From an uncultured bacterium (GTDB taxonomy: Bacteria > Hydrothermota > Tepidihabitantia > Tepidihabitantales > Tepidihabitantaceae): a DNA stretch of 64,000 nt. Under the pieces are notes generated by a model. It was given only the letters and a program-made list of their open reading frames with translations, was not told the DNA's origin and did not search any database. This document shows, piece after piece, positions 2,824-30,028 of this stretch (position 1 is its first letter; each line of letters starts with the position of its first letter). Position numbers and translations under genes: made by a program. The DNA lies in the NCBI GenBank assembly GCA_964590395.1, contig CAZPVT010000021.1, positions 1,329 through 65,328 on the forward strand, given 5' to 3'.

Positions 2824-5046
2824 TCAATTAGCCTGTGTCCGGCGGATTTGGGAAACCAGTTGACCTATTGCGCTGATTAACTTCAACCCGGCAAGAAATG
2901 CGACGGTGTTGATAACACCGATGATCGGGACAAAAATGATCGCGGTAAAAAAACCACCCAGAGTCCCACCGGTGAAATCCAGCAGGCTCAACAAGCCAGC
3001 AGTTCTCCCTCCTGTCACTCTGTTAAGCTGGTGTTCAATGCTTGCCACCCCGAATTGCCACCCCAAAACCGCACCGCTGATGAGTAGTACCAGTAAGAAC
3101 ATTAATTTTCCACCCCAACCAGCAAGCAGAGATAAAATCCAAAGCAGAATAAGAAAAACAAGTTCACCAGCCAAGAATAGCCAGGACCAGACCTTTGGGC
3201 TGGGGGCAAATTTTTTTTCTAAAATCAAGGTGATTGCGGCACCGGGAACGGTTCCCAACATAAAACCCGCGAGCATAAGGGTTAATGCCGAGTACACTGT
3301 ACCGAACCGAATCTGATAGAGCAAGATCGCCAGTGTAGAAAATCCCGCGCCCGCGAATCCAGAGGTTAAAATCCCCAATGCCCGGGCGAAGGTTTTTCGT
3401 TTGCTACTGCCTAATACCGTGGTGATCAGCAATAAAAAAAGGGCTGGTAGGATTGCGCGGTTTACAGCCCTGGGAAGGGCAGAGAGCATCCGGGCAAAAC
3501 CGGGTGATGAACGTTTTACCTCCCAGACCATATTGAGAAAAAGTTCCTTAGGAAGAAGGTCTTGATTTACCGCTTGGGTGGTGGCGATACTTTTTTGGAA
3601 CATTTGCTGACGGAACGGGGCAAGCAGCATCCGCAGATAATCCGGGGTTAGCACGGTTAATTGGAGGTTATTTTGGTTTAAGCGAACGGCAAGAGTTTCC
3701 GGATTGAGATTTAATCGTTGTTTGCTGGCGATGAGCACCGGCAGGTCAAGCCCGACGGTAGTAACACAGGGAAAAGCCTGGTTAAGAGTGGTAATTCTTA
3801 TCCCGGTGAGGAGTGCTATTTCCGGTCCCAGGTTGTCCACTGACCCGGGTGGGAAGGTGAAAACCGCTCCTTTATTTTTTAACCGTTTAGCACAGAGCAG
3901 AAAAAACTCTCGGCTAAAAAGGCGGTTGGTGCTGAGGCTGGTTGGGGCATTGGTGGGGATGATTATCAGATCAAAACTGTCTTCAACACGGTTGAGGAAC
4001 TGACGGGGGTCAATGGTTAGCAGTTTAACCTTCGGATCGGTAATCTCTGCTGTTAGGGGCTTGCCACCGGCCCTTTTCATCTCTTCAACGAGCAGTGAAT
4101 CAAGTTGGGTTACGATGATCTGAATCTCCGGATATTTAATTAACTCCAACACTATCCCTCCCAAACCGGCGCCGAGCAACAGGACCTTTTTAGCGTTGCC
4201 GTGGCTAAGCATCGGCAGATGAGCAACCTGTTCGATGGTTATTTTTTCAATTACCGGGTAACGCATTACTGTTACTCCATCGTACAGGAGTAACCGCTCG
4301 CCGGCTTGATCCAAGGTAACGATTTTGCCATACGGCGACTCTCTGATGGCTAATACCCGATGCCCAGGCCAGAACGATTGGAGCAGGATCTTTTCCCAGT
4401 GTTGGGCGGTGGTGGTTCCCGCGATCATCAGGATGCTACCAACTGTTACTAATACCATTCCCTTAACCCGGCAAGCGGCTAAAAGTGATAGGGTAGCCAA
4501 TAAGATTCCTGCGAACAGGCAGACGATACCCAGCGCGGATAACCTGGGGATTAAATAAAAATAACAGGCAAGGGCAGCCAGAAATGTGCCGGCACCTTCG
4601 GTGAGATATGCCCAGTTCACTCCGCGGTGACGTTTTGAACCGGCGGTAAGATCGGCGCCCAGGGCGAAGAGTGCTCCATGGCTGAGCGCGGGTAGAACAA
4701 CTACCAGTGCAGTTACTGCACCGAGGGTCAGGATATTCAGACTTTCACCGGGAAGAAAGCCGAACATTTTTTTACTGAGCGGGACAGCGATCACGCCGAA
4801 AACAGAACTGAGGGCGGAAATAGTGCCGAGGGTTAGATAAATGCTCTTTGCCCGGTTTGCCAGTCGTTCGGCGAACCTGCCCATTAATACCGCGCCAACT
4901 CCTTCTGATAATAACCAAAAGGAAAGAAAAATGCCCGCGGAAAGTTCATTGCCGGCAAAGAGGGCAAAGAGTTCGCGCAGTAAGACTACCTGAGTTACTA
5001 ATCCTAAACTACCGATTACGGCGATCGTCAGCAGTAATTGAGTCAT
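2824..5046 (-). CDS. membrane-bound spermidine synthase-like protein (multi-TM / aminopropyltransferase-fold fusion)
   Basis: TM blocks flank a central domain with ESPYGKI, VLLLGAGLGG, FDLIII and LFSREFF...KRLKNKG. Confidence 0.8.
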   Translation of the reverse strand: MTQLLLTIAVIGSLGLVTQVVLLRELFALFAGNELSAGIFLSFWLLSEGVGAVLMGRFAERLANRAKSIYLTLGTISALSSVFGVIAVPLSKKMFGFLPGESLNILTLGAVTALVVVLPALSHGALFALGADLTAGSKRHRGVNWAYLTEGAGTFLAALACYFYLIPRLSALGIVCLFAGILLATLSLLAACRVKGMVLVTVGSILMIAGTTTAQHWEKILLQSFWPGHRVLAIRESPYGKIVTLDQAGERLLLYDGVTVMRYPVIEKITIEQVAHLPMLSHGNAKKVLLLGAGLGGIVLELIKYPEIQIIVTQLDSLLVEEMKRAGGKPLTAEITDPKVKLLTIDPRQFLNRVEDSFDLIIIPTNAPTSLSTNRLFSREFFLLCAKRLKNKGAVFTFPPGSVDNLGPEIALLTGIRITTLNQAFPCVTTVGLDLPVLIASKQRLNLNPETLAVRLNQNNLQLTVLTPDYLRMLLAPFRQQMFQKSIATTQAVNQDLLPKELFLNMVWEVKRSSPGFARMLSALPRAVNRAILPALFLLLITTVLGSSKRKTFARALGILTSGFAGAGFSTLAILLYQIRFGTVYSALTLMLAGFMLGTVPGAAITLILEKKFAPSPKVWSWLFLAGELVFLILLWILSLLAGWGGKLMFLLVLLISGAVLGWQFGVASIEHQLNRVTGGRTAGLLSLLDFTGGTLGGFFTAIIFVPIIGVINTVAFLAGLKLISAIGQLVSQIRRTQAN

Positions 5047-5192: not shown

Positions 5193-5232
5193 TTGACAGG
5201 AAGCCATAATTCTGGTATTATAATACCAGAAT
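5193..5232 (+). promoter_or_regulatory. sigma70 promoter overlapped by a 24-bp perfect palindrome (probable Rrf2 operator)
   Basis: TTGACA(5193)-17-TATTAT(5216); ATTCTGGTATTATAATACCAGAAT at 5209-5232 is its own reverse complement. Confidence 0.8.
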
Positions 5233-5238
5233 AGAAAT

Positions 5239-5691
5239 ATGGCAGAGCTTTTCAATATCTCGGATGCGGCGCGTATCGGTCTGCATGCGGTGTTGTTATT
5301 AGCCCAGCAGCCCGACGAACGGCTGACTATTAATGAACTTGCCGCGGCGCTCGGTTGTTCTACTGCCCATCTGGCGAAGATACTGGCGCAACTACAGCGG
5401 ACTGGGTTTGTTAAAGGTAAAAGTGGTCCGAATGGTGGTTACCAACTTGCCCGATCAGCAGACCAAATTTCGCTGCTGGAGGTTTATCAGGCGATTGAAG
5501 GAGAGGTCTTGGCGGCAAGGTGTCCGTTTGCAGTGCCGGTTTGCGACGGCGGTGGTTGTCCGCTGGGCACCTTTTTTCAGTATCTCAACCGGCAGGTAAT
5601 TAGCCGTTTGAGCCGTCAGAAACTGAGCGAAGTCAAACTCAAATTTGGAGGTAAAGATGGGCAAAAAAAGGAAGATAATAAAGATCGATGA
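5239..5691 (+). CDS. Rrf2-family transcriptional regulator (three Cys, likely Fe-S)
   Basis: HLAKILAQL, GPNGGYQLAR, ISLLEVYQAIEG, C-x5-C-x4-C. Confidence 0.93.
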   Translation: MAELFNISDAARIGLHAVLLLAQQPDERLTINELAAALGCSTAHLAKILAQLQRTGFVKGKSGPNGGYQLARSADQISLLEVYQAIEGEVLAARCPFAVPVCDGGGCPLGTFFQYLNRQVISRLSRQKLSEVKLKFGGKDGQKKEDNKDR

Positions 5692-9956: not shown

Positions 9957-11381
9957 TTACCGGACCGGGGGTGCGCTGGGTTGAGTTGCCTTTACCGCCG
10001 GCACCGCCAGGTCCGCAGGTGCTTCGGGTGCAACTGGAAAACGCAGGTGCTCATCACCTTTTCTCAGTCCGATCACCCGGTAGAAAAATCCCGCGCTGGA
10101 TTTGCCATTCTGCAGTTCATAGACATCAAAACCGGTGGCGTCAGTTTTGACATAGACACCATTACACTCATCGGCCAGGGTTACGAACACCAGTAGAGGC
10201 CGGTCTTGAGTTACCGCGACACAGTCCAGAAACAGTGGATCAAGATTGACCCGGCAATGGCCATTCACCAGCCGGGCAGAGCCAAAGTCCTCAAAGTAGG
10301 GCTGGGGTGATTCCGGAGCAAAAAGTACCCGTTTGCCCGCGCGGGTGTTCATAATTGTTGATTTATTCCCGTCACTGAGGATGCCGTATCTGGTCCCGGC
10401 GTGATGATAGGCGATATAGGCATACACGGTATCGGTTCCGGTGCCATAGGTGCGAAAATAACCACCGCCCCGGTTGCCGGTTAAATTTCGTGCCAGACCA
10501 TAAACGCCGATGGTTGAACCATTGAACGCACCCCCACAACCACTGGCAAGGGTATAGACCGTATCCTGAATGCCATTGCCCATTGAGGCAACACCGGTAC
10601 CGGTGGCACTGCTGGCATAGCCGAAAAGTCCAAAATCCTTAGCAGAAAATGTGCCCCCAGAACCACTGGTTAAATAGACTAAGGGGTCGTTATTACCACT
10701 GCCACCGATCGCGGTTCCTTTTAAGTGGGAGTTGTGTCCCCGGACACCGAAGTTGGAATCACCCTGAACTCTGCCGAAGACCCCGGCGTTGCTGTTGCTG
10801 TTTGATTGACCGTAGAGTGCAGCACTGCCCGTGACGCCACTAGCATAAGCGGCAAACTGCCCCTGTGCCCAACCGTTTCCTGAGATGTAGAAGTTGGCAC
10901 TGCCCTGCAGGTTATTCTGATTATAGATGAACTGGTGGGCATGTCTGCCATCAAGCATATCCGCATTGTCCGCTCTTGCCGATTGGATGCTGTAGGGCAT
11001 TGAGGTGATCTCAGTGCGGGGTAAAAGCACCTGGCTATTAACCGTTAATTGAAACCAGCGGCGCAAGCCAAGCCGGAAAATCGTGGTGTCCGCCTCGGCA
11101 AGTTGCAGTTTGAGGTTAAAAATTCCCTGCTGGACTGAAACCGGATTGAGTATCCACTGTTTAAGCAGGTTCCCGCCGTTTTCCGAATCATAAATACCGA
11201 TGCCCATTGACACATTGGCATTAATCGGGTTGCCAGTTGGGTCGGTCAAGTAGCCCTGATAGTTGAGGAACATCGGCACGCCATCCTGAAACCCAATTTC
11301 AGCCCTGGGTTGCATTGGCAGGTCGGTGGCAAAGATAAAACCAGCCATCACGACCAAAATTACTGATAATAATTTTATCAT
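9957..11381 (-). CDS. secreted Gly-rich fibre/beta-helix-like protein
   Basis: Signal peptide; LNYQGYLTD N-domain; ADNADMLDG; GVxG repeats; C-terminal APESP..FEDFG.A.LVNG domain resembling tail-fibre-like proteins. Confidence 0.65.
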   Translation of the reverse strand: MIKLLSVILVVMAGFIFATDLPMQPRAEIGFQDGVPMFLNYQGYLTDPTGNPINANVSMGIGIYDSENGGNLLKQWILNPVSVQQGIFNLKLQLAEADTTIFRLGLRRWFQLTVNSQVLLPRTEITSMPYSIQSARADNADMLDGRHAHQFIYNQNNLQGSANFYISGNGWAQGQFAAYASGVTGSAALYGQSNSNSNAGVFGRVQGDSNFGVRGHNSHLKGTAIGGSGNNDPLVYLTSGSGGTFSAKDFGLFGYASSATGTGVASMGNGIQDTVYTLASGCGGAFNGSTIGVYGLARNLTGNRGGGYFRTYGTGTDTVYAYIAYHHAGTRYGILSDGNKSTIMNTRAGKRVLFAPESPQPYFEDFGSARLVNGHCRVNLDPLFLDCVAVTQDRPLLVFVTLADECNGVYVKTDATGFDVYELQNGKSSAGFFYRVIGLRKGDEHLRFPVAPEAPADLAVPAVKATQPSAPPVR

Positions 11382-11447
11382 TCTTTTCCTCCTTCTTTTT
11401 AAAATAAAATCTTACTTACCTCTTGTGCTCCTTCCCCCTTCGTTTAC

Positions 11448-11476
11448 ATTATACTTAAACCCAGGCAGTTTGTCAA
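11448..11476 (-). promoter_or_regulatory. consensus sigma70 promoter for the 11381/9928 gene pair
   Basis: TTGACA-17-TATAAT; SD AGGAGG before ATG 11381. Confidence 0.8.
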
Positions 11477-11726
11477 CAGGTTTAACTAATTCAGTTTTCA
11501 AAATATTTTTGTTTTTCTGAGCCGTAAACTGTCAGGCACTTTTTTATAATTTTATAAGGCAAATTCCAACTTTGTTATAAACCCAAAGCAAATGGGTTTG
11601 TTTACCAAACGCACAGAACACTAATAATATCTATTTATAAGCATACATTAAAGGACTGTTTTGATTGGTTATTTTGTTTTTAAGTCTTTGATTTTGTTTA
11701 TGTTATATTAATTTTTTTATCTTAAC

Positions 11727-11966
11727 CCACCGGGCAGTATAGAGGACGGTGGTAGATATCGTTTTGAAGGGGGTTATATTTAGGGTTGGTGTTGCGGTTG
11801 GAAGTTTGGTTTTGGGGTTGGTTTTTGTCATCCTATTGATGGGAGCAGTTGAAGTTGTCTTTGCCTTGGTTTTCAGCGGGGTTTAGTTTTGGGCATCGGT
11901 AAGGGTTGTCATACTGATTGGTGGAAGGGCAGTAGTGGCGGTAATTTGAGCAATTGTATGTGTGGT
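11727..11966. repeat. degenerate 12-bp-period array (AC in register on the minus strand)
   Basis: GT at 11737+12n in 14 of 20 consecutive units; the misses are GC x3, AT x2, CT x1. Confidence 0.8.
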
Positions 11967-11981
11967 AGTGATGGCGTTTTT

Positions 11982-12755
11982 TCAGGTCTCAGGTTCAGAG
12001 ACGATTTCGACCCGGAACTGCCAGCCATAGGACTGGAATCCGACCGCACGGGCGGTTGCGATCGAGGCGATGTTGCGTTCTGAGGTAATGTAGACCGGAA
12101 TTTTGTTTTGCTGCAAGACCGCCTGGGTAGCATAGGAGAGCGCGGTTTTGCCGTAACCTTCTCGACGTTTAGCAGGGATGGTGCCCGGAACGCACATTTC
12201 CGCAACCTCCTTGTCTAAGTGTGGAACCTGCCAGGTGCCGGCAACTGAAACTGGCTGGTCTTTGCCAAAAGCGGCATAGCAGGTGCCTTCTTTAATGCTA
12301 TGGTCAAGGTAACTGCCGTAAAGTCCAACTGCGGAGAGGAGCGGTATGTCAGCAATGGATATCTGGCGGCAGGGATGAAGGTTGTGAAGACGAAAACAGG
12401 TCGTGGTGACAAAGAGGATTGGACCGGATACGCTGGCAAGGCGATGTTTTAGTCCGAGTGTGTGAGCAACTACATTGAGGAGTTGCTGTTGTCCCTGCGG
12501 AGTATGGAATTCGCCGAGTGACATTCTGTTGGTCTGGTTGCGGACTGGGATTTCCAGTTTGTGCTGGACCGAGATGATACAGCGGTTGCCGGTGGCAATC
12601 AGGTAAAGGGCAAAGGTGTTGTGGTAGTTGATCTCGGGCTGATCACGTCGGTCCGAGGGGGCAACAACTACCGTGCCTGGGCTGACTTTGGTAAGGTCGC
12701 AGTCCAGGTAACGGGAGAAGAACTCATCGAGGATCGCCCTGACCGATCGCATCAA
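11982..12755 (-). CDS. GNAT-family N-acetyltransferase
   Basis: C-terminal T.PAKRREGYGKT acetyl-CoA motif and NIASIATARAVGF. Confidence 0.8.
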   Translation of the reverse strand: MMRSVRAILDEFFSRYLDCDLTKVSPGTVVVAPSDRRDQPEINYHNTFALYLIATGNRCIISVQHKLEIPVRNQTNRMSLGEFHTPQGQQQLLNVVAHTLGLKHRLASVSGPILFVTTTCFRLHNLHPCRQISIADIPLLSAVGLYGSYLDHSIKEGTCYAAFGKDQPVSVAGTWQVPHLDKEVAEMCVPGTIPAKRREGYGKTALSYATQAVLQQNKIPVYITSERNIASIATARAVGFQSYGWQFRVEIVSEPET

Positions 12756-12761
12756 CCGGTT

Positions 12762-13718
12762 TTATTCTTGGTTTTTTTTCTTATCAAACAGATCAAGGAA
12801 TCGGTCTTCATAGAGCGGGAAAAGTCCCCAACGGTCCAGTTCCTCTTTGAGTTCTTTTGCCTTAGAACGGTCGCGCTGTGCCTCTTCAAACAGTTTTTCA
12901 ATATGAGCCATCAGTTCGTGAGGTTCGGGTTGTTCTGACGGCGGCGTTTCTTCGCCGGGTTCGTGTTCATCAGCGGGTTCAGGGGAGCGGCGCAGGGTAT
13001 CAAGCGCTGCAGCAACCCGACGTTCAAATTCGCCCATCATCCGGTCGGCTTCGCGGATCCGTTCGTCAAGTTCGGTGGTGTCAATTGTGGTGTTTAGGAT
13101 CTTGCAGAAGACATCAATGATTGCTTTGGAGGCTTTTGGGTTGGGGGCTTCAATTGCGTACTGGGGCATAGTGGCAAGGAAACTGGCAGCCGGGATAGCC
13201 CGGGATTTGGCAAGTCCGAGCAAAAGGCCGTTGAGGCCGGAGATCCTGCCCTCTTTTAAAGGCTCAATACCGAGGTTGATAAACCGCTGGCGCAGGGCGG
13301 AATCGGTGGCGACCCCGAAGACCTGGGTCGGGTGGCGGTAACTCATTGGGGTGGCAAACGCAGCACCGGTAAATACTGTGTCGACACCGGCTCCCTGGGC
13401 GATGTCAAGGAGTTCACTGGCAATTCTTATTCCCGGTTCACCGCCAATCTGTGCTTCGCCTTCAAAGATGAACAGCGGTGGTTCATTAACATAGAAGATT
13501 ATTTGACGGGGCGGGTGTGGGATGGTGCCGATGCCATCTTCAACCTCAATTGCATCAGGCAGGAAATAAGGGGTGGCGTCAATTTCCGCATAGGGTTCGC
13601 CATGGAGTTTCATCCGCAGATAACTGGCGGCAAGAATGCCAACATGCCCCATTCCGGGCCAGCAGGCGATGAGCACCGGTGCCTGGTATCTTTTCGGCGT
13701 GTAGTATTTTATCGGCAT
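12762..13718 (-). CDS. PAC2-family (proteasome assembly chaperone-like) protein
   Basis: IACWPGMGHVG, GRISGLNGLLLG, PNPKAS motifs; charged C-terminal tail. Confidence 0.85.
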   Translation of the reverse strand: MPIKYYTPKRYQAPVLIACWPGMGHVGILAASYLRMKLHGEPYAEIDATPYFLPDAIEVEDGIGTIPHPPRQIIFYVNEPPLFIFEGEAQIGGEPGIRIASELLDIAQGAGVDTVFTGAAFATPMSYRHPTQVFGVATDSALRQRFINLGIEPLKEGRISGLNGLLLGLAKSRAIPAASFLATMPQYAIEAPNPKASKAIIDVFCKILNTTIDTTELDERIREADRMMGEFERRVAAALDTLRRSPEPADEHEPGEETPPSEQPEPHELMAHIEKLFEEAQRDRSKAKELKEELDRWGLFPLYEDRFLDLFDKKKNQE

Positions 13719-13799
13719 AGTATTATCATTTTAGCGAAAAAATAATTCTTATCAACCAATTTCATCATCAGATGGCTAAACGGTGGTGAGGAGGCAGTT

Positions 13800-15389
13800 T
13801 CAGCCTTGACCCAGCCGCTGAAAGAAGGCAAGCGCGACCGCGCTGACCTCTTTTATCTTCAAAAGACGGGCAAGGACATAGTAGAGGAAAATGCCGATTG
13901 TGCCTGTTACGAGCAGTTCTAAGAGTTTTAGAGGGAAGTGGGTCGGAAAAGGGAGTTGTTCAAAGGTGTGGGCGATAAGTGCGGTAGCAATGCCGGCAAT
14001 CAACGCGGCAATCAGGGTACGGAAAAAAACTGAGGTCGTGTGGCGGCGAAAAAGTTCTGGTTGACTGCGCGTGAGTAGGAGATAGAGTAGTACGAAGTTC
14101 AAAAACTGGGTTAGCGAAGCAGTAAGGGGGAAGGAGCGAAAACCGATAATCCGCATTAGAAAGAGGTTGATCAGGATGTTAGCGGTGACGACGATTATGG
14201 CAACTACGGTTGGGGTTCGGGTGTCGCCGGTAGCATAAAAACCGCTCGCACAGTTTCGGGTCGCTGCCGCCGGGAAAATGCCTAAAGAGTATAGAGCGAG
14301 CGCCTGGGCGGTAAGGCGGGTGTCAAGCGGAGTGAACCGGCCGTGTTCATAGAGCAGTCGAACAAGAGGTTGGGCAAGGACAAGGAGAAGCACCGCCGCA
14401 GGTATCGTGAGCACGGCAACCAGATTTAATCCGTGATTAAATTGGTCGGGGTCAATTTTGTCCGTGGCGGTGTGAGTCAGTTGTGCAAGAGCGACCGTGC
14501 CGATCGCCACGCCGAAAAGTCCGGCAGGCAGGTGCTGAATCCGGTAGGCGTAACTGACCCAGGTTATTGAACCCGTGGGCAGGAAGGTTAATAAAAAGGT
14601 GTTGATCAAAAAGTTGACCTGCCAGGTGGCAAGTCCTAATAGCATCGGTAGCCAGCGGCGAAAAACTTGACGCAGTTGTGGGTCGCGAAAATCCAATGCC
14701 AAAGTGTAGCGAAAGCCAAAGGCACGTACTCGGGGTAACTGGATTAAAAACTGGCAAACCGCACCGATAGTAACGCCGTAAGCCATGGCGAGAATCTCAG
14801 GGTGTCCGAGTTTAGTAAAGATGGAGTAGGTGGCAAGGGGAAAGAGTGCGGATAGGATGTTGAATGCTGCTGGAGCCACCGCTGGAGTAAAGAAACTGCC
14901 AGAAGCGTTAAGGATGCCCATTGCCCAAGCAGCAAGGGCAACAAATAAAAGGAAGGGAAACATAATTCTGGTGAGGGTGATGGTGAGAGAAAGTTTTTCG
15001 AAATCAGGCCGATACCCCCAGGCAACCAGTTTGACAATATAGGGCGCAAAGATGATGCCCGCGATAACTAAGGTGGTGATAACAAGCAGGATGGCGTTGA
15101 ACGTATTCGCGGCAAAATACCAGGTTTTCTTTTCGTCCCCCTGTCGCAGGCTCTGGACAAAGGTTGGGATAAACGCTGCGGATAGAGCACTTTCAGCAAA
15201 AAGGTCGCGGAAGAGGTTGGGAATGCGGAAGGCGACATTAAATGCGTCGGTGGTGACGCCGGCGCCGAAGAGATAGGCAAAGACCGACTCGCGCACGACA
15301 CCGAGAAGCCGGGAGATCAGAGTGCCGATAGTGAAGAGTCCAACCCGCCGGGTGAAGCGAGCAGAACTTATGTCAGTGTTAATAGGCAT
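13800..15389 (-). CDS. murJ: lipid II flippase MurJ
   Basis: SRLLGVVRE, DAFNVAFRIPNLFRDLFAE, YAYRIQHLP, FYATGDTRTP. Confidence 0.96.
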   Translation of the reverse strand: MPINTDISSARFTRRVGLFTIGTLISRLLGVVRESVFAYLFGAGVTTDAFNVAFRIPNLFRDLFAESALSAAFIPTFVQSLRQGDEKKTWYFAANTFNAILLVITTLVIAGIIFAPYIVKLVAWGYRPDFEKLSLTITLTRIMFPFLLFVALAAWAMGILNASGSFFTPAVAPAAFNILSALFPLATYSIFTKLGHPEILAMAYGVTIGAVCQFLIQLPRVRAFGFRYTLALDFRDPQLRQVFRRWLPMLLGLATWQVNFLINTFLLTFLPTGSITWVSYAYRIQHLPAGLFGVAIGTVALAQLTHTATDKIDPDQFNHGLNLVAVLTIPAAVLLLVLAQPLVRLLYEHGRFTPLDTRLTAQALALYSLGIFPAAATRNCASGFYATGDTRTPTVVAIIVVTANILINLFLMRIIGFRSFPLTASLTQFLNFVLLYLLLTRSQPELFRRHTTSVFFRTLIAALIAGIATALIAHTFEQLPFPTHFPLKLLELLVTGTIGIFLYYVLARLLKIKEVSAVALAFFQRLGQG

Positions 15390-15635
15390 AGCGGAGTATA
15401 ATCACAGATCGGCGTAAATGCAAAAAGAGCGGTTCTTTATTAGCAAGAAAAAGGCAAGGGTAAACAGACTGTTCAAAAGTCAATAGCGATTTATCTACAA
15501 GGAGTAAGTTAGGAACGGGTATTAGGCTTACGGCTAAAAGATAAGCATTTCGTTCGCGATAACCGGAGAGAGGTGAGCAGATTAAACTTGACAGCGATAG
15601 GGAAAATCTTTATCATTAGTTAAAGGAGCCTGTTA

Positions 15636-16172
15636 ATGTTTAAGCAAAATAAAGGTTTCACGCTCGTGGAGTTGTTGGTGGTTATCTTAATTCTAGGGGT
15701 GCTGATGGGAATGTCCGTACCGCGGTTTGCGGGTATCAGACAACAGGCGAGGATAGCGGCGATGAAAATTAATCTGCACAATGTGCAAACTGCAATTGAG
15801 ATCTTTCACCAGGAGTTTGGCTATTATGCAGAAGACTTTTATGAGGATGGTTATGGCTGTGTGTTCCCCGGGGGGGAGTATGATGTTAGAATAGGGAAGT
15901 TGCCCACCAACCCTTGGAACGGCAAAGAGATGGACCCAGATGAATTCAATCCTGAGGATTACGATGATATTACCGAGGTTGCCAACAAAGATGAGTATGG
16001 TCCCAATGATGTTTACGGTTATGACCCAGGAAACATAATTTATAAGGTGTATGACCCCCCTGGTTCGGCGTACCCGACCAATTATGGACTTTTGGGTATT
16101 GACCATAGCGGTTGTTCAATCCGGGATTTCACCCCAGATGGCGATGCGGTGATTTTTGTCTTGCACAATTAA
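15636..16172 (+). CDS. type IV pilin / T2SS pseudopilin-like protein
   Basis: KG|FTLVELLVV prepilin motif; own promoter TTGACA-17-TATCAT and SD AGGAG. Confidence 0.9.
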   Translation: MFKQNKGFTLVELLVVILILGVLMGMSVPRFAGIRQQARIAAMKINLHNVQTAIEIFHQEFGYYAEDFYEDGYGCVFPGGEYDVRIGKLPTNPWNGKEMDPDEFNPEDYDDITEVANKDEYGPNDVYGYDPGNIIYKVYDPPGSAYPTNYGLLGIDHSGCSIRDFTPDGDAVIFVLHN

Positions 16173-16236
16173 AGGTGGGTAAATTATGAGACGAAAACAG
16201 TTGACAATGGGTTGTAATAAATCTATAATTAACATT

Positions 16237-16779
16237 ATGCCCAGCGGTTTTGGGTACACGCAGGGGTTTACCCTGGTTGAACTGCTGGTGGTCATTTCTG
16301 TTCTGGGAATTCTCCTTGCCTTTCTTGTACCGACGATGATCTCCCGGGTCGCAACCAATGCCCGGCGCACTGTAACTCAGCAGGAGATGAATGTGCTCCG
16401 CGAAGCGATTATGGGTAATCCAGACCTGCGCGTCGGTGGCGAGATCGCAGGGTACGGATTTAAACAGGATGTCGGCAGGTTGCCGCGGGATCTGGTGGAA
16501 CTGGCAACCAGAAATCCGTTTGAGGGTATGTATGCTCCAAGGATGTATGTGGGAAAGGAGACGCTGCCAGCTTGGGATCCCTACATCAAACGGGGATGGA
16601 ACGGACCTTATATCCGTGAGGATGGGCAGATGGGTTATCTATATGATGCCTGGGGAACCGAATATCGCTTCTTGGTGGAAAATAACGAGACAGTAGGTTT
16701 GGTGAGTGCTGGGCCAGACGGACTTTTCTGGGGTCAGCCCGGCGCAGTAAAAAATGATGACATAAGAGTCAGATTTTAA
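16237..16779 (+). CDS. GspG-like pseudopilin
   Basis: QG|FTLVELLVV; GWNGPYI...DAWG.EY...SAGPDG. Start moved to ATG 16237 because TTGACA-17-TATAAT occupies 16201-16229. Confidence 0.88.
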   Translation: MPSGFGYTQGFTLVELLVVISVLGILLAFLVPTMISRVATNARRTVTQQEMNVLREAIMGNPDLRVGGEIAGYGFKQDVGRLPRDLVELATRNPFEGMYAPRMYVGKETLPAWDPYIKRGWNGPYIREDGQMGYLYDAWGTEYRFLVENNETVGLVSAGPDGLFWGQPGAVKNDDIRVRF

Positions 16780-16789
16780 GGGGGGGAGA

Positions 16790-17599
16790 GTGAAAAGCAA
16801 TGGCAAGGATAGCGGGCTAACCCTGATTGAACTGCTGGTTGTGATTATGATTCTCAGCCTGATTCTTACCGCGGCGATTCGAACCTGGGATGTTACCTTA
16901 GAACGGGGTAGATTTGAGCAGACCCGACAGAAACTCGACCGCCTTGCCAAAGTTATTAGCGGTGACCCGGATTATGTTGTCGAAGGGATGAGAGCGGATT
17001 TCGGCTTTGTCGGTGATATGGGAGCTTTGCCGAGGAGCCTGAGTGACCTTACCACCAAGCCCAGTTGGGTAACTCCCCCGGAGAGCAGTCGCTGGCGCGG
17101 ACCTTATATCAAATCAACGTTTTCGGAGTCGCCAGAGGGCTATCGTATAGATGGTTGGGGGGACACGATAATTTTTAGCCGAGACAGTCTTTTCCTAAGG
17201 AGTTATGGTGGAGGAGGTTTAGTCGACCGGCAGAAATGGCTAACAAGACCGCTGGGTTACAGTTTAAATGATTTACTCCACAATTTGGTTACCGGAATCG
17301 TTCTGGATCAGCGAGGGGTACCCCCACCGGATACACTTTTACCCCGTCTGGTAGTGCAGTTAGAGTATCCACGCCAGGGTGTTTTATACCGGGATTCTTA
17401 TACCCCGGCAGCCGGAAGTAACGGAATGTTTGAGTTCCGGGATGTCCCGCAGGGAGTTCAAATACTCAGGGTTATGTTCTGGTATTATTATCCGCCGCCA
17501 CCACGGTGTGATACCGTTGTAAAGAATGTGGTGGTTTTCCCGCGCGCTGGGGCGCGAGGTATTGAGGTTAGATTAAATTTAGATTGGAATAACCCGTGA
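16790..17599 (+). CDS. pilin/pseudopilin-like protein
   Basis: SG|LTLIELLVV; DFGFVGDMG.LP, WRGPYI, DGWG. Confidence 0.87.
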   Translation: MKSNGKDSGLTLIELLVVIMILSLILTAAIRTWDVTLERGRFEQTRQKLDRLAKVISGDPDYVVEGMRADFGFVGDMGALPRSLSDLTTKPSWVTPPESSRWRGPYIKSTFSESPEGYRIDGWGDTIIFSRDSLFLRSYGGGGLVDRQKWLTRPLGYSLNDLLHNLVTGIVLDQRGVPPPDTLLPRLVVQLEYPRQGVLYRDSYTPAAGSNGMFEFRDVPQGVQILRVMFWYYYPPPPRCDTVVKNVVVFPRAGARGIEVRLNLDWNNP

Positions 17600-17607
17600 G
17601 GTGTAAT

Positions 17608-18729
17608 ATGAAAAAGCCGTTCAATGGGTTTACCCTGATGGAACTTTTAGTGGTTTTGCTGATCATCGGGATTTTAAGCACAGTGGCACTACGTACGATT
17701 GATGCAACCCGGGACCGTTCTCTGTTTGACCAGACAACCAAGGAGATGCGGGAGTTGGTGAATGCAATGGTGGGTAATCCAGAGATTACTGCTAATGGTC
17801 ATCGGATTGATTTTGGCTTTTTTGGTGATATGATGAGATTGCCCAATGATTTACGGGAACTGGTGGAAAATACTACCAATTCTCCCAACTGGCATGGTCC
17901 TTATCTCCGGCGCGAGCTTCTCCAAGATTCCATCGGCTATCAGTTTGATGCTTGGGGAAATCCGTACACTTACAACTCAGTCACCGGAACAATCGCAACT
18001 CTGGGCAACGGCAAGTTTCCAATGACGATGAGAGTAGTTGATTCAATTCCCCATTTGACGAACAACACCATCACCGGTAATATTACTGATGCAGAAAACA
18101 ATCCTCCGGGCGAGAAGGCCCCAACCGTGGGGGTTTATCTGTATTTACCAAACGGGACCGTCTATTTCACCCGGCCAGATGCAGGTGGTTATTATGAATT
18201 TACGCCCGCGACACATGGTCCTATTCCGGTCGGACATCACAAGATTACCGCGAAGCGCCCGGGTGGTGATTCAATTGTTAAGTGGATTACTATTGTGCCG
18301 CGGAGTAAGTCAATTATTGATTTTCGTTTTACCAAGTCTTTTCGGAACTACCTGCAGATAGTCGGGGCACCGGTACTTTCCGGTGACAGTTCCGGCTTTA
18401 CCATAAAAATAGTAAACCCGGGCGGTGATCCTGATACCGTGAGATGGATTAAGTTTCAGGATGCTCCGGATAGTGCGTATATGACCTGGCTGTACATCCG
18501 CAATCACGAGCAGCGACAATGGGAATATAATCCGCGACCGGGAAAGGGAGATTCCTTTAACATTATGCCCTCGTTTTTGGTCGTTCAACCGAACAGCGAA
18601 GAGATCGTTGAATTCAGTTTTTACAACTTTACCAAGACACCTACCGGTGGTGACAAAAGAAACATCTTTAATGAGTTGTTTAGATTGCGATTTAGCGATG
18701 GCTCGGAATTTAATGTCCGGCCGCGATGA
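17608..18729 (+). CDS. large pilin/pseudopilin-like protein with C-terminal beta-sandwich domains
   Basis: NG|FTLMELLVV; DFGFFGDM.RLP, WHGPYL, DAWGNPY. Confidence 0.87.
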   Translation: MKKPFNGFTLMELLVVLLIIGILSTVALRTIDATRDRSLFDQTTKEMRELVNAMVGNPEITANGHRIDFGFFGDMMRLPNDLRELVENTTNSPNWHGPYLRRELLQDSIGYQFDAWGNPYTYNSVTGTIATLGNGKFPMTMRVVDSIPHLTNNTITGNITDAENNPPGEKAPTVGVYLYLPNGTVYFTRPDAGGYYEFTPATHGPIPVGHHKITAKRPGGDSIVKWITIVPRSKSIIDFRFTKSFRNYLQIVGAPVLSGDSSGFTIKIVNPGGDPDTVRWIKFQDAPDSAYMTWLYIRNHEQRQWEYNPRPGKGDSFNIMPSFLVVQPNSEEIVEFSFYNFTKTPTGGDKRNIFNELFRLRFSDGSEFNVRPR

Positions 18730-18751
18730 GATTTTGACATAAGGAGGCAAA

Positions 18752-20356
18752 TTGGCAACTAAAGTCTTTGGCGGGGGTGGTAAAGGCACCCTGTGTATTG
18801 ATATCGGCTCCAATTCGGTGAAATTTGTCAAACTGGAGGGTGGTAGGGTTTTAGATTACGGCTTGAAAGAGATCGGCGAGGCTTTTGATGTGCCCTCCAT
18901 TTTGCGGGAGCTGATCAAGGATTATCGGCCACGGGAGGTTTATACCTTCGTTTCCGGCCCCTCGGTGAGTGTACGTCAGGCACCGTTCCCCAAAATGAAC
19001 CGTCGAGAACTCAAGGATGCGATACTACTGCGTTTGGACAAATATTCCCCATTTACACTGGATGAGGCGATTTTTGACTTTAAGACCCTTGGACCGGTAC
19101 GCGAGGCGGGAGCAATCAAAGACAATGTGATGGTTATTGCTGCGCGCAAGGATATTGTTTCCGATCACATCTCCACCTTGCGTAAGGCAGGGTTAGAACC
19201 TTCAGCGATCAGTGTTGTGCCCTTTACCCTACACGCGGCAGCAAGGAAATTCGGGCGGGTAAAGCCTGATGAGACGATCTGTCTTTTGGACATCGGGGCG
19301 GAATTTACCGATATGGTATTTATGAAAGGAGAGCGGCTGGATTTGGCACGTACTGTTACTGCCGCCGGGAATGCGATTACTGAAGCAATGACCGTGGCTA
19401 TCACTACTGAAGAAGGTCAGTTGGCGCTGGATGCCTATGACGCAGAGGAACTAAAGCGAAAGTACGGTATTCCACCGGAGGATTCCACAGAGCGTTTGCC
19501 TTCCGGGATTATGATCAAACGGCTGTCGATACTCCAGCGGCCGGCTTTAGAGCGATTTATTGCCGAAGTCAACCGTTCCCTTGATTATTACCGCCGGGAG
19601 TTCGGAGAACAGAAGATCGATCGGCTACTGATCTGCGGTGGAACCGCGGCATTGAAAGGGTTAAGGGAGTATCTCCAGACAAGTCTGGGCATACCAACCG
19701 AGGTCTTCGATCCGTTCAAGGATTTTGGATTGTATAAGAGAGGAGTGACACCAGAGGAGGAAATCGGTCACCGGCTGGTAGCGGCACTCGGGTTGTATTA
19801 TGACCATACCGCGGTTGATCTGTTACCGGTGGAGATGAAAGCCGGTCAGTACATTGCCCGGGACATCAGGATGATGACGGTTGGTGGGATATTCTGGGCG
19901 GGGTTGCTGATACTGGGTTATATCTTGGTTGCGGGTTGGTCAGGAATTTCCCGGGCTGCGGTTATGCGATTGAGAAACGAGATTAAGGCGACTGAGGAAC
20001 AGAATCGGACCTATTTTGAATTGGAAAAGGAGATTGCCGATTTAGAGGCAAGACAGCGGGCATTGACGGGTGTTGTTGGCGAGGTTATGCCGGCAGTACC
20101 GGTGATGGCAAAGGTATCAACGATAGTTCCTTTGAATATCCAACTGAACACATTTACCCTGAGTAACCGGACGAATATCAAGTTGACCGGTGTGGTCAGT
20201 GGCGAGCCACATCTTTTAGATGTCGACTTGGCACAGTTTTTAATCGACCTCGAGCGCAGTCCACTTTTTAAGCAGGTGCAGTTAGTTTCCAAGAACCGTA
20301 GTAGCCTGCAGGGTGAGACGGTTCTGGAATTTGAAATCCAGTGTGTTACGGAGTAG
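18752..20356 (+). CDS. pilM: PilM-PilN fusion (type IV pilus assembly)
   Basis: Actin-like IDIGSNSVK, LDIGAEFT, ICGGTA; then VDLLP (PilN INLLP-like), TM helix, coiled coil and LERSPLFKQV PilN-like domain. Confidence 0.85.
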   Translation: MATKVFGGGGKGTLCIDIGSNSVKFVKLEGGRVLDYGLKEIGEAFDVPSILRELIKDYRPREVYTFVSGPSVSVRQAPFPKMNRRELKDAILLRLDKYSPFTLDEAIFDFKTLGPVREAGAIKDNVMVIAARKDIVSDHISTLRKAGLEPSAISVVPFTLHAAARKFGRVKPDETICLLDIGAEFTDMVFMKGERLDLARTVTAAGNAITEAMTVAITTEEGQLALDAYDAEELKRKYGIPPEDSTERLPSGIMIKRLSILQRPALERFIAEVNRSLDYYRREFGEQKIDRLLICGGTAALKGLREYLQTSLGIPTEVFDPFKDFGLYKRGVTPEEEIGHRLVAALGLYYDHTAVDLLPVEMKAGQYIARDIRMMTVGGIFWAGLLILGYILVAGWSGISRAAVMRLRNEIKATEEQNRTYFELEKEIADLEARQRALTGVVGEVMPAVPVMAKVSTIVPLNIQLNTFTLSNRTNIKLTGVVSGEPHLLDVDLAQFLIDLERSPLFKQVQLVSKNRSSLQGETVLEFEIQCVTE

Positions 20357-20359
20357 ACT

Positions 20360-20935
20360 ATGAAACTAATTGAAAGAAGGGTAGTTCTCATCGGAATAGT
20401 TATTTATGTCGTTTTGGGGATCGGCTTTTGGTTTCTGCTTTATCAGCCAAGGTTAAATGCCCGGCAGAAAACTGTTGCTGAGATAAAGGAGTTGCAGAAA
20501 CAACTGGATGAAACCAAGGCACGGATTGCCCAGATGCCCAAATTAAGAGCGAAGAAAGAGCAGTTGGGGATGGAGATAGCCGGCATCTGGGAGCGGGTCG
20601 TTCCCCGTTCAGAGATGCTGGGACTTTTCCGGCAGCTGGCACAGGAGGCAGAGCGCCAGCGGGTACGTTTTTTAGAGGTCGCTCCCCCCGGTTTGGATAC
20701 GCTTTTGGAAGAGGAGGGGCCGAGTGCCCAAGTTCGGCCGGTACCGTTTATGGTAACGGTTCAGGGACGGTACTTGGATATCGGCCGGTTTGTTGAGGGT
20801 CTTGCACAGTACCCATATTTCGTGCGCGTTCCTGATTTTGATATCAATGCTCGTGAGGATATCCGGCCAGAGGTCGAGGCTAAGATGCTGGTTAATATCT
20901 ATGCGTCCAGTCTGGCGGGCAGGAGAGGTTTGTGA
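20360..20935 (+). CDS. pilO: type IV pilus assembly protein PilO
   Basis: N-terminal TM, coiled coil, VTVQGRYLDIGRFVEGL; follows pilMN. Confidence 0.85.
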   Translation: MKLIERRVVLIGIVIYVVLGIGFWFLLYQPRLNARQKTVAEIKELQKQLDETKARIAQMPKLRAKKEQLGMEIAGIWERVVPRSEMLGLFRQLAQEAERQRVRFLEVAPPGLDTLLEEEGPSAQVRPVPFMVTVQGRYLDIGRFVEGLAQYPYFVRVPDFDINAREDIRPEVEAKMLVNIYASSLAGRRGL

Positions 20936-21498
20936 GACGAATTATTATTTTGGTTGTTGTCGTCGCGATGGTAGTGCTGGGGGCCGTGCTCTTTTTACGT
21001 AAGCCGAAAGCCAGTTCAGCTAGTTCAAAGAAAAAGACCACGCAGACAGAATCGGCTTCAGCCACCGAGCAATCAAAATCTCGGGGACGCAGCGCGGGCA
21101 AAACAGCAGGCAGGGTTAAAGCAAAGACCAAAGAGGAGCGTGCGGCAGAACGAAAGCGTATCCGCCAAGAGGAGAAGCGAAGAAGAAAAGAGTTGAAGCG
21201 GCGGGAACGGGAGAGAAAGCGGATGCTGAAGTATGCGCGTAGTCGTCGGGGCAAAAGAAAAACCGGAAGGAAGGGTACTTACTATGTAGTTAAGGCGATA
21301 GTCTCGTTAGGGGACGAGAGTTATGCCCTGATCGATAGTCGCCGGGTTCGAGTTGGTGATGTGGTAATGGGAAGAAAAATTGTAGCAATTCAGTCCGACC
21401 GGATCGAGGTAGAGGCATTTGGACGTCGTACTACGATCAGGGTGGGAGAGAGTCTATTGCCAATGAGTTATTTTACTAGGAAAAGTGGAAGAATTTAA
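20932..21498 (+). CDS. hypothetical membrane-anchored protein, very basic, with PilP/GspC-like beta domain
   Basis: TM helix, Lys/Arg-rich helix, C-terminal ALIDSRRVRVGD...IVAIQSDRI. Confidence 0.6.
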   Translation: MRRIIILVVVVAMVVLGAVLFLRKPKASSASSKKKTTQTESASATEQSKSRGRSAGKTAGRVKAKTKEERAAERKRIRQEEKRRRKELKRRERERKRMLKYARSRRGKRKTGRKGTYYVVKAIVSLGDESYALIDSRRVRVGDVVMGRKIVAIQSDRIEVEAFGRRTTIRVGESLLPMSYFTRKSGRI

Positions 21499-21516
21499 AA
21501 AAGAGAAAGGAGTGTT

Positions 21517-21978
21517 GTGAGGCAGAGATTTTTAGTAATTTTAGCACTGGTAGTGGCGGTGCTGGCGGTCGTTACCCTGGTTCGATCAAAACCTTCAGTT
21601 GCCCCTCAGATTATTACAAATGAAGTGACAACCGAGGTTACGAGACGGGCTAAAGGTAAGGCAGCCAAATTGAAATCGAGGGTTCAAGAGGCGGTAGCAC
21701 CGCTGACCACGCCGAAGGACTTTTCCTCGCCGGTTTATACCGAACCGATTGAATGGGGTAGTGATCCATTCGTGCGTGACTGGATGCTGATGAGTGAGGT
21801 CGCTAATCTTAATCTTAGGGCAATCACAGTAACCAGTGATGGTGGTAGTGCCCTAATCAATGACCAGATAGTCCAAGCTGGTGATTTAATCAGTGGTAAA
21901 AAGGTGGTAAGTATTGAACCCGACCGGGTAACGCTGGAACAGGGTGGTAGGACGTTTACTTTGATATTGGGGGAGTAA
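21517..21978 (+). CDS. PilP/GspB-like membrane-anchored protein
   Basis: TM helix, W.SDPF, ALINDQIVQAGD...VVSIEPDRVTL; precedes the secretin. Confidence 0.65.
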   Translation: MRQRFLVILALVVAVLAVVTLVRSKPSVAPQIITNEVTTEVTRRAKGKAAKLKSRVQEAVAPLTTPKDFSSPVYTEPIEWGSDPFVRDWMLMSEVANLNLRAITVTSDGGSALINDQIVQAGDLISGKKVVSIEPDRVTLEQGGRTFTLILGE

Positions 21979-21981
21979 AGT

Positions 21982-23577
21982 ATGAAAAACACAAAAACAG
22001 TTTTTGTCGCAGTAATTTTTTCTCTTTTCGCCGCAGGTATTATTCAGGCACAAGTAGTCGTTAAGGATGTCGCGGTAGATAAACTGCTGGATGGGGTGCG
22101 AGTGTCGATCGCGTGCATTGGCAATCCCAATATTAGTTCGTTTGTTACCCAGGATCCGCCGGCTATTGTGATTGACATTATGGATGCGAGTGCACGGCTG
22201 ACACAGGAAAGGATTGTTTCTTCTTACTATCCGGTAACCGCAGTAACAGTTAAGCCGAGTGAGGCGATAAATGGAGTACGGGCGACCATTATGCTCAAAA
22301 ATATGATGCGTCATAAAGTTACTAATGAGAACGGGGTGATTGCGGTTCAGGTTGGCACACAACCACTACCGCCACCACCGGCGCCGATGCCGGAAGACCA
22401 GTTCAGCGGAAAGCCGTCCCTGACACTTTTAGTTCAGGATGCTGAGGTTACCAGCGTTTTACGGATGCTTGCTCGCCAGTTCGACCTTAACCTGATGGTA
22501 ACCCAGGATGTAAAGTCAGTAGTCAGCGTGAGATTGAATGAGGTACCGTTGCGGTCTGGTCTGGAAGCGCTGGTGAAAGCCGCGGGGTGTAATATGGTGG
22601 AGGATCGAACCGGTGTGTTGATTGTGAAGCCCTTGAAGAAGGAGATGTACGGAGAGCTACAGACGCGGGTATTTAATTTGGATTATGTTGAGGCCGATGA
22701 CGCACTTAAGGCGATTAAGAAGACGCTGTCACCGTTAGGAGAGGCGGTTCAAGGGTTCCGCCGGGTGGGGACCAAGGGCGGTGGTATGGAACGGAGTGCG
22801 GTGTTAGTGGTAAGTGATGTTCCCGAAGCATTAGAAGAGGTGGCGAAGGTAATTGCGGAGTTAGACCGTCCGATGGCCCAAATTGCTATTGAGGCGAAGT
22901 TTATTGAAACTACCCGTTCATCCCAAGACCGGTTCGGAATTGACTGGACACCGGTTGCATCATTCAGCACCGAGTTACCCGAGATTGGTGATGAAGTGGC
23001 TGTTCCTGTCATTATCAAGGAGATGCTGGTCGGCAAGATTTCCTTTTCTCAATTTACCGCGGCTATTGAGTTGGTGATGTCCCGAGGCAGGTCGCGGGTA
23101 CTTGCCAATCCGAGGACAGTCACACTGGATAATCAAACCGCATCGGTGAGTATGGGACTGGATGTACCGATTCGTGAGGTTAATAAGGATCCGAATACCG
23201 GTGAAATTACTTATACTTGGCGGACACGGTCGATTCCGATAAAAATGGAGGTTACCCCACATGTAACTTCTGACGGAATGATTACAATGAACGTGAAACC
23301 ATCGGTTTCTGCGATCACCGGCTGGGTCGGTTCGGCAGATGACCGACAACCGATAGTGGCAAAGCGTGAAGCAGAGACACAGGTCAAGGTTGCAGAGGGT
23401 GAGGTAGTAGTAATCGGGGGACTGGTGAAGGATGAAGAGACGAAAAATGTCGGTAAAATTCCGTTACTTGGCGACATTCCATTTCTTGGCCATCTATTTA
23501 AGAAGACCTCGATTGAGCGGACGAAGAGCGATCTGATGATATTTATCATTCCGCACATTATTAATCCGGAGGGGTAA
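21982..23577 (+). CDS. pilQ: secretin PilQ (AMIN-like, N-domains, secretin domain)
   Basis: QIAIEAKFIE, LANPRTVTLDNQTA, VTPHV, VIGGL, KIPLLGDIPFLG.LF. Confidence 0.93.
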   Translation: MKNTKTVFVAVIFSLFAAGIIQAQVVVKDVAVDKLLDGVRVSIACIGNPNISSFVTQDPPAIVIDIMDASARLTQERIVSSYYPVTAVTVKPSEAINGVRATIMLKNMMRHKVTNENGVIAVQVGTQPLPPPPAPMPEDQFSGKPSLTLLVQDAEVTSVLRMLARQFDLNLMVTQDVKSVVSVRLNEVPLRSGLEALVKAAGCNMVEDRTGVLIVKPLKKEMYGELQTRVFNLDYVEADDALKAIKKTLSPLGEAVQGFRRVGTKGGGMERSAVLVVSDVPEALEEVAKVIAELDRPMAQIAIEAKFIETTRSSQDRFGIDWTPVASFSTELPEIGDEVAVPVIIKEMLVGKISFSQFTAAIELVMSRGRSRVLANPRTVTLDNQTASVSMGLDVPIREVNKDPNTGEITYTWRTRSIPIKMEVTPHVTSDGMITMNVKPSVSAITGWVGSADDRQPIVAKREAETQVKVAEGEVVVIGGLVKDEETKNVGKIPLLGDIPFLGHLFKKTSIERTKSDLMIFIIPHIINPEG

Positions 23578-23634
23578 TTTACCCGAGCACTTGATCGTGG
23601 AAATGAGCGTGGGTGATAGTTCTCATTACCGTGA

Positions 23635-25568: not shown

Positions 25569-25569
25569 G

Positions 25570-26541: not shown

Positions 26542-26562
26542 TGTGGAGCAGAGCAGTTTTAA

Positions 26563-28737: not shown

Positions 28738-28815
28738 TTTTTACTCCCTTCTGGTTTTGAAATTGCATAATTTTAGCCAACAACGCACTATAAGTCAACC
28801 CGATTTATACCCAAG

Positions 28816-28878
28816 GAGATTGTTGTGACTTTGCCACTTGCCAAGAGCAAAGCGTCACTATCGCTCCTTGCAATGACA
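28816..28878. repeat. degenerate REP-like palindromic element
   Basis: GAGATTG...CGCTCCTTGCAATGACA resembles the copies at 29325 and 48873. Confidence 0.6.
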
Positions 28879-28989
28879 CTCTCCCTGCTCCTGGCTCCTG
28901 TCTTTAGAACTCTAAACATCACAGCCGGATTCCTCTAGCCATTTCTACTCCCAATCCACCACTTGAGCCTATTCCCAGCCAGCCCTGAA

Positions 28990-29993: not shown

Positions 29994-30028
29994 TTTAAAT
30001 GAATTAGATGAGGAGGAGAAAAGGCTAT

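Follow-up and report, generated by a model that had tools for sequence, protein, structure and literature searches.

The tract at 11727-11966 of the window, the 64,000-nt stretch of DNA analysed here, belongs to a family of mosaic, non-coding intergenic elements with about 40 members in the genome of a hot-spring bacterium; in these elements, an array of 12-nt units is followed by an end motif, an A-rich spacer and a palindrome. The explanation we favour, and to which we give somewhat less than an even chance, is that the array, lying upstream of promoters, forms a track to which an oligomeric DNA-binding protein binds cooperatively. The window corresponds to C21:1329-65328 of the source genome (G000), which belongs to candidate division WOR-3 and comprises 1.83 Mb in 35 contigs.

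The arrays of the window and their family in the genome

Array 1 was read on the minus strand, from 11966 to 11727, as 20 consecutive 12-mers. AC occupies unit positions 1-2 in 14 of the 20 units and ACC opens 11 of them, the same counts and the same 12-bp period as had been claimed in an earlier note on this DNA. As a measure of significance, we used 5000 dinucleotide-preserving shuffles of the 240 nt, none of which reached the observed count of either AC (mean 5.29 and maximum 10 in the best phase) or ACC (mean 3.02, maximum 7). On the minus strand the 240 nt are rich in A and C, with 88 C, 87 A, 41 T and 24 G, and reading ACN as a codon gives threonine as every fourth residue. Two further details of the note proved correct, namely that all eight units nearest the AT-rich flank begin with AC and that the threonine frame contains a TAA at 11883-11885.

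The array starts 16 nt past the upstream co-directional gene. Its last two units, ACCGTCCTCTAT and ACTGCCCGGTGG (11727-11750, minus strand), represent a degenerate form of the type-B end motif GATACCGTCCCCGATACTGCCCC together with its GC hairpin, and the orthologous loci of the relative G005 show an identical ACTGCCCGGTGGG ending. They are followed by a spacer at 11480-11726, which is A-rich on the minus strand and contains blocks common to other copies of the element. The perfect IHF consensus reported for this region is indeed present at 11681-11693, but it is at chance level, with 4 matches in the window vs. 2.56 expected and four or more matches in 27 of 100 shuffles of the window; no conservation of the site was seen in the other element copies compared by eye. 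A canonical sigma-70 promoter at 11448-11476 on the minus strand (TTGACA-17-TATAAT, 12/12) serves the downstream gene 9957-11381 and is separate from the element.

Scanning the window for AC or GT at lags of 9 to 15 yielded only two sites that reached 8-9 of 10 at lag 12, array 1 and 28978-29170, vs. at most 7 of 10 at any other lag. The second site contains array 2 (28990-29145, plus strand), in which 12 of the 13 units open with AC and which continues into a type-A end motif, ATGGGGACGGTTCTGGGGACGGGGTC, at 29116-29141. Alignment of copies revealed an A-rich spacer with a conserved TTGAAAAAT...GATAAA block at 29142-29215 (plus strand), and the palindrome TTAACCTATAGGTTAA at 29216-29231 belongs to the same element. 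Past the distal end of array 2 and reading away from it, the minus strand carries the promoter TTGACT-17-TAAAAT (28770-28798) of the dehydrogenase gene 27835-28737; this promoter and that of gene 9957-11381 are examples of the canonical promoters that the flanking genes have of their own. Array 2 is followed at 29240-29400 by high-copy, hairpin-ended repeats of the GTCATT...GCGAGG...GACGAAGCAATC type, where the contig depth rises 5-15 fold and public contigs break; similar units also come after several other elements. The sole Rfam match in the window at gathering score is a tRNA gene at 2673-2746 on the minus strand.

Over the whole genome, 355 scan windows with at least 7 of 10 AC or GT were found at lag 12, compared to 28 at lag 9, none at lags 10, 11 and 13, three at lag 14, seven at lag 15 and 85 at lag 18. 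We regard the periodicity as confirmed. The lag-12 windows of G000 cluster into 41 loci, arrays 1 and 2 included, although a few of them are devoid of an end motif and may be unrelated (e.g., C5:195451, C30:216321 and C34:94185, in strand coordinates). The arrays contain 7-29 units each, and the profile of all 658 units shows A at 0.90, C at 0.86 and C at 0.73 in the first three positions, followed by weak preferences. The overall unit composition is A 0.34, C 0.375, G 0.117 and T 0.166, with G being scarce at all nine variable positions (0.05-0.19).

We distinguish two types of end motifs, with 36 matches in G000 at up to 5 mismatches. Type B consists of GATACCGTCCCCGATACTGCCCC followed by a CTGCCCC/GGGGCAG hairpin and type A of GGGGATACGGTTCTGGGGATGGGGTC followed by an A run; array 1 is a somewhat degenerate type-B copy, while array 2 is of type A. 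Past the end motif, the element continues with an A-rich spacer with conserved blocks and then the palindrome TTAACCN4GGTTAA, which occurs 14 times in the genome (0.12 expected), nine of these within 250 nt on the 3' side of an array. Among the type-A copies, two mirror-image classes can be told apart by the spacer block TTGAAAAAT/ATTTTTCAA and by the T-run or A-run flanks of the palindrome, and judging from these sequences it looks as if the segment from motif to palindrome is inverted in some copies. The paralogous pair on C30 and C35 shares one common block from the distal promoter through array, motif and spacer, whereas a second pair has in common no more than part of the array, its motif and spacer, and some 170 nt of the sequence that follows. 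At locus L151 (C30, ~175600-175700), directly past the promoter at the distal end of an array, we noted a short ORF of 23 codons that would encode a lysine-rich peptide containing KKTAKK repeats and that follows a Shine-Dalgarno-like AAGGAGG.

Selection on anchor and register

For the analysis of substitutions, the 20 type-B copies were reduced to the 10 with a mean in-register identity of at least 0.50 to the others, and the other 10 were dropped. These 10 paralogues can be aligned unit by unit over 168 nt with zero indels, even though about 36% of the positions differ. The mean pairwise mismatch amounts to 0.15, 0.18 and 0.17 at the ACC positions and to 0.39, 0.40, 0.53, 0.42, 0.48, 0.36, 0.47, 0.40 and 0.33 at unit positions 4-12, corresponding to a 2-3 times slower change of the anchor than of the remaining positions. 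No 3-nt periodicity of substitution was detected among the 10 paralogues, the three ACC positions being equally protected, and in the paralogues of the related genome G033 every alignment gap is a multiple of 12. Because the ACC changes slowly, the register is kept free of indels and a three-base rhythm is missing, we conclude that the trinucleotide anchor and the strict 12-nt register are under selection, rather than codons.

A period of four codons would also suit small repeat proteins with Thr, Val or Gly at each fourth residue, or recent pseudogenes of such proteins, and some array frames are indeed open over 42-110 codons. Stop codons were counted over the 41 arrays, about 2600 codons per frame, and compared with shuffles preserving each unit column. 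The counts were 40 vs. 38.4 expected in the Thr frame and, on the other strand, 60 vs. 64.2 in the Val frame and 83 vs. 95.4 in the Gly frame; none of the six frames was free of stops over the 41 arrays, and the numbers stayed at the expectation from composition. Stops in the Thr frame occur in many copies, even within the conserved end motif, and TAG or TAA lies in frame with ACC in G026, G033 and G042. In G033, the Gly frame is open over 70-90 codons in six of seven copies, but the ATG of the end motif lies in this frame in just three of the seven, and one copy has an upstream stop and no start. Six array ORFs gave no match above the curated cut-offs of Pfam and NCBIfam. These results, together with the missing codon rhythm, indicate that the arrays are non-coding: an intact, conserved Thr-rich ORF, the outcome that the earlier note had named as speaking against its own proposal, was not found, and we regard a coding function as effectively excluded, with a very small residual chance.

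The main proposal of the earlier note was that the tract is a CRISPR-like adaptive array with a 2-3-nt 'repeat' which grows at its leader end. The fixed unit length with variable sequence between regularly spaced fixed elements and the AT-rich flank recall such arrays, but CRISPR arrays consist of identical direct repeats of ~24-48 nt and unique spacers, a structure that is absent here, where an anchor of 2-3 nt recurs in units of 12 nt at 41 loci. The polar decay of the anchor holds locally at array 1 and disappears over all 41 arrays, whose AC fractions by quintile, from distal to proximal, are flat (0.78, 0.77, 0.81, 0.82 and 0.76). Identity between adjacent units of an array is barely higher than between units taken from different arrays (0.334 vs. 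0.311), which also led us to reject an origin of the units by tandem duplication, and the homology of the paralogues unit by unit shows that arrays are inherited whole and in register. The sequencing runs listed with this stretch comprise two DNA metagenomes from hot springs and no RNA run. Over 11000-30000, the contigs of the two metagenomes agree with both arrays and show unchanged unit numbers, but either run may be where the DNA came from, so that the comparison is uninformative on the gain or loss of units.

The true CRISPR arrays of G000 have 36-nt repeats at a spacing of 65-69 nt and lie beside a Cas6-RT-Cas1 gene. There are three cas1 genes in the genome, located outside of the window, and just one of the 41 arrays lies within 1 kb of any of them, at the junction of contigs C33 and C8, with a second one at 6.5 kb from the cas1 gene on C25; an association with cas genes, as expected of CRISPR arrays, is therefore missing. 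Positions 1-11415 of C33 (locus L129), outside of the window, represent a type III-B CRISPR-Cas locus with genes for a Cas10/Cmr2 fragment, Cmr3, RAMP proteins, a CARF protein, an 876-aa Cas6-RT-Cas1 fusion and Cas2, as well as two short arrays of 36-nt repeats (~227-468 and ~3542-3710) and a lone repeat at ~5226-5255. The type-A element on C33 adjoins a true CRISPR array, as the proposal might lead one to expect, but the contact is on the side of the first array that faces away from cas2, where the repeat is degenerate, and we read this side as the trailer end. The array sequence of this element also begins contig C8, so C8 and C33 probably join there, followed by a gyrA-like gene (named by eye). 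With no polarity, no repeat/spacer structure, an IHF site at chance level, paralogues in register and ordinary CRISPR arrays in the same genome, CRISPR-like growth is effectively excluded, and we see next to no chance for it.

Genomic position, relatives and transcription

Gene positions in G000 were taken from crude calls, for which the longest ORFs with a length of 100 aa or more were used; these 1468 calls cover 90% of the genome. According to these, the flanking genes are divergent at 18, tandem at 17 and convergent at one of 36 loci, and the gene on the distal side lies on the strand opposite to ACC, i.e., co-oriented with the G/T-rich strand, in 30 of 40 loci. The arrays are located upstream of promoters: 26 of the 41 have a promoter of at least 10/12 within 300 nt past the distal end that reads away from the array, and in 13 of the 41 the -35 box is found within 45 nt of the last unit. 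No clear phase preference between the array and the -35 box of the next promoter was apparent in these 13 cases. Promoters scoring at least 10/12 precede 16 of 27 array-adjacent genes vs. 34% of 608 other first genes (Mann-Whitney p = 0.009), a modest effect obtained with a crude method. The array-neighbouring genes are diverse, and no common theme among them was seen by eye. In 29 of 37 arrays, the G/T-rich strand coincides with the strand that is locally richer in G, compared to 710 of 1214 genes, and this bias looks independent of that of the neighbouring genes (2x2 table: 23, 5, 6, 3).

To follow the element in relatives, we searched 66 genomes of the order for eight ACC at 12-nt spacing with up to 3 mismatches and obtained matches in 40 of them, with backward-pattern controls being low in most genomes and high in some. 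At up to 2 mismatches, 43 of 251 genomes sampled across the phylum contained the pattern, the matches listed from outside the order including coding repeats of the proline/glutamate type. All related arrays have a period of 12, while the unit sequence varies by lineage: it is ACCnnnAATTAG in G026 and G033, ACCCnnnATATC in G030, ACCTGGnAGGCA in G025, ACCAACTCCCnA in G029, ACCCCCGGAGTA with alternating orientation in G050 and ACCGTGGGGAGG in G051. The unit of G042 and G038, ACCTnnTAGGTn, is palindromic and has the sequence of the palindrome that stands alone in G000. The end motifs of these genomes can be recognised as related to one another.

Transcription of the G/T-rich strand would yield a C-poor repeat RNA with GGU every 12 nt, which might serve as a multivalent platform (sponge or scaffold) bound by an RNA-binding protein or as a long leader regulating the next gene. 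One line of support for this possibility comes from G033. There, seven of seven copies carry a perfect TTGACA-17-TATAAT promoter with a TG extension that reads the G/T strand through motif and array, and the array is almost certainly transcribed in this lineage, to judge by these promoter sequences. The perfect extended -10 consensus promoter lies inside the repeat in each copy (loci L022 and L028-L033), and by eye the interval separating the L022 array from the next gene contains another promoter-like site, TTGACA-17-TAGAAT. One copy in G026 scores 11/12, and three copies in G025 show by eye TTGAT(T/A)-15-TA(A/T)A(A/T)T just upstream of the motif, one G025 copy having an intrinsic terminator past the array. 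G000 itself contains weak, positionally conserved -10-like boxes on the G/T strand 17-40 nt upstream of the motif, and six of the 20 type-B copies share TTAA(C/T)(T/A)-18-TAT(A/C)(T/A)T with the -10 box ending 27-28 nt upstream of it. The orientation biases (30/40 with the next gene, 29/37 with the G-rich strand) are those of transcribed units, and the G-rich, C-poor composition would probably let an untranslated RNA escape Rho.

On the other side, no promoter of at least 10/12 reads into the arrays in either G000 or G005. In the array body of G000, on either side, the only sites at this threshold are two on the A/C strand (-174 and -90) and a few on the G/T strand. A consistent terminator is missing, and the palindromic arrays of G042 and G050 would fold back on themselves and bury the motifs. 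Structure prediction gave no signal above chance: the z-scores of the G/T strand were 0.56 and 1.81 for the two loci of the window and -0.01 on average for all 41 arrays compared with shuffles, and that of the A/C strand of the first locus was 0.49. Neither locus of the window matches any Rfam family at or near its gathering score, and alifold of the region from motif to palindrome, on both strands, returned only the palindrome hairpin, with covariation terms of 0-0.22. A structured non-coding RNA family was rejected on these grounds. For the repeat RNA, we estimate a chance that is limited but should be taken seriously; this GU-rich RNA and a phased protein-binding track had been the alternatives offered in the earlier note, and both survive the tests made here.

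If instead the A/C-rich strand were transcribed, it would be an idealised Rho-loading (rut) tract, and the element might act as a Rho-dependent terminator, insulator or Rho sponge. RhoTermPredict defines a rut site as 78 nt with C>G and cytosines each 11-13 nt, followed by a hairpin pause site (PMC6407284), and the A/C strand agrees remarkably well with these sequence criteria: it contains 37.5% C and 11.7% G, the ACC provides a YC dinucleotide each 12 nt, and type B ends in a GC hairpin. It is also nearly unstructured, folding with -11 kcal per 100 nt vs. -26.5 +/- 4.6 in random genomic windows, and the Rho primary site is reported in a review to prefer A and C at most positions (PMC12360218). 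G000 contains a Rho gene, and array 1 begins close behind a co-directional gene. On the other hand, rut sites are part of a transcript, with a promoter or gene upstream on the same strand, but at 30 of 40 loci the gene that flanks the A/C strand on its upstream side is directed away from the array, so that no gene transcript enters it, and just the two promoter-like sites at -174 and -90 read this strand upstream of the motif end. Unlike rut sites, the arrays are far longer than 60-90 nt (2-5 times the length needed by the hexamer), and their homologues in G025, G042, G050 and G051 are either G-rich or made of palindromes. Furthermore, the cryo-EM spacing given in the review is 5 nt bound plus a linker of 4-5 nt, rather than 12 (PMC12360218). 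We therefore consider a role in Rho loading improbable.

The uneven distribution of the element within the genus, with 223 pattern matches in G000, 62 in G005, 18 in G006 and none in G001-G004, raises the question of a selfish, MITE-like mobile repeat without host function, whose 12-bp units would be subterminal sites for the mobilising enzyme. Consistent with mobility, six closer relatives (L048-L053) lack array 2 in front of the gene that it precedes in G000, the encoded protein being 82-87% identical, and there are subfamilies with near-identical flanks. Single-strand transposition is reported to produce replication-strand biases of about the size seen here for the G-rich strand (29/37). 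Array 1, however, is old and stable, because G005 has it at the orthologous site behind the same gene, and G001, G002 and G004, in which the identity of the flanking protein is 58-65%, retain an A/C-rich, out-of-phase remnant of it that shares the end motif. The similarity of paralogues fades gradually on the array side instead of ending sharply. The family of Y1 transposases gave no match in G000, G005, G033 or G025 and was rejected as the mobiliser. Overall, a purely selfish repeat has only a small chance of being correct, in our estimation. A copy number that varies from 0 to more than 200 pattern matches within a genus fits such a repeat as well as it fits the sites of a regulator.

A candidate binding track and its known counterparts

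In the favoured explanation, the array would act as double-stranded DNA carrying weak sites head-to-tail, to which an oligomeric DNA-binding protein would bind cooperatively with one subunit per 12 bp. Binding would be nucleated at the conserved end motif or at the palindrome, the latter being a likely nucleation site, and the resulting filament may activate, insulate or otherwise set the adjacent promoter that reads away from the array. We infer the nature of the ligand as a protein, the binding of DNA rather than RNA and the effect on the promoter from the arrangement of the element. A binding track is supported by the constant register and the conserved anchor, by the non-coding arrays with no RNA structure, and by the promoters past the distal end, the few convergent loci and the C30/C35 block that includes its promoter. 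The palindromic units of G042 and G038 or the alternating orientation in G050 suit dimers on duplex DNA, and the duplex is also favoured by the finding that no strong promoter reads into the arrays of G000 or G005.

The binding track has three main weaknesses. G is scarce throughout the nine variable positions, which looks like a feature of a single strand, as RNA or single-stranded DNA, rather than of position-specific protein contacts. Promoters read into the arrays of G033, and the two orientation biases are of the kind seen in transcribed units or in processes acting on single-stranded DNA. All three keep the G/U-rich repeat RNA alive. A candidate for the binding protein was not found among the diverse neighbouring genes, which were read by eye. 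On a larger scale, the element might belong to a chromosome-wide system, new to description, of the WOR-3 bacteria of this order, in which tens of phase-locked 12-bp tracks are nucleated at a motif, coated by a filament-forming protein and serve as promoter-upstream insulators or domain boundaries, with a recognition unit co-evolving by genus and perhaps a repeat RNA in some lineages; this wider picture is tentative, and we hold it to be possible but doubtful.

Should the arrays be binding tracks, they would reveal a regulator or chromatin-like protein of an uncultured phylum and provide a clean natural example of selection on phase rather than sequence. The family offers about 40 naturally varied substrates per genome for pull-down and footprint work, and the units co-varying genus by genus should make the partner protein findable by phylogenetic profiling. 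In annotation, the arrays explain why gene callers could predict dozens of small Thr-, Val- or Gly-rich ORFs in these genomes that are spurious. A full-text literature search, confined to main texts, gave no description of such arrays, and we know of no described case in which the phase and a 3-nt anchor are conserved instead of the unit sequence.

Among the known RNAs, sponges of the CsrB/RsmZ type present many copies of a short G-containing motif on a non-coding RNA of a few hundred nt, with several gene copies. The arrays resemble them in their many short G-containing motifs, their several copies and the strong promoter in G033, but they differ by the strict 12-nt spacing, the missing hairpin presentation and the lack of a GGA consensus in G000. 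Further parallels exist at the DNA level. The plasmid systems parC/ParR and tubC/TubR, the latter with 12-bp repeats, contain iteron or centromere-like arrays bound by filament-forming DNA-binding proteins. As in these systems, short tandem units of a fixed period near one protein footprint stand in direct or inverted orientation beside a promoter, and the register matters; the constant-period tandem units with selection on the register and a recognition core are those of iteron-type arrays. In contrast to the plasmid systems, there are about 40 chromosomal copies next to unrelated genes and with no known partner gene, only three of 12 positions are strongly fixed, the arrays reach up to 29 units and the two strands differ strongly in composition.

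The REP/BIME elements of enterobacteria and the BOX elements of pneumococci, which contain a variable number of internal modules, are mosaic interspersed intergenic repeats. They share with our element the tens of intergenic copies, the modular build with variable internal units, conserved end modules and a palindrome, and a copy number that is uneven among close relatives. The internal unit differs from theirs in being 12 bp long and mostly free of sequence constraint, with conservation of phase and anchor rather than of the unit sequence, and whereas REP elements favour the 3' ends of genes, convergent gene ends are avoided here (1/36). The element thus belongs broadly with both the mosaic interspersed intergenic repeats and the iteron arrays.
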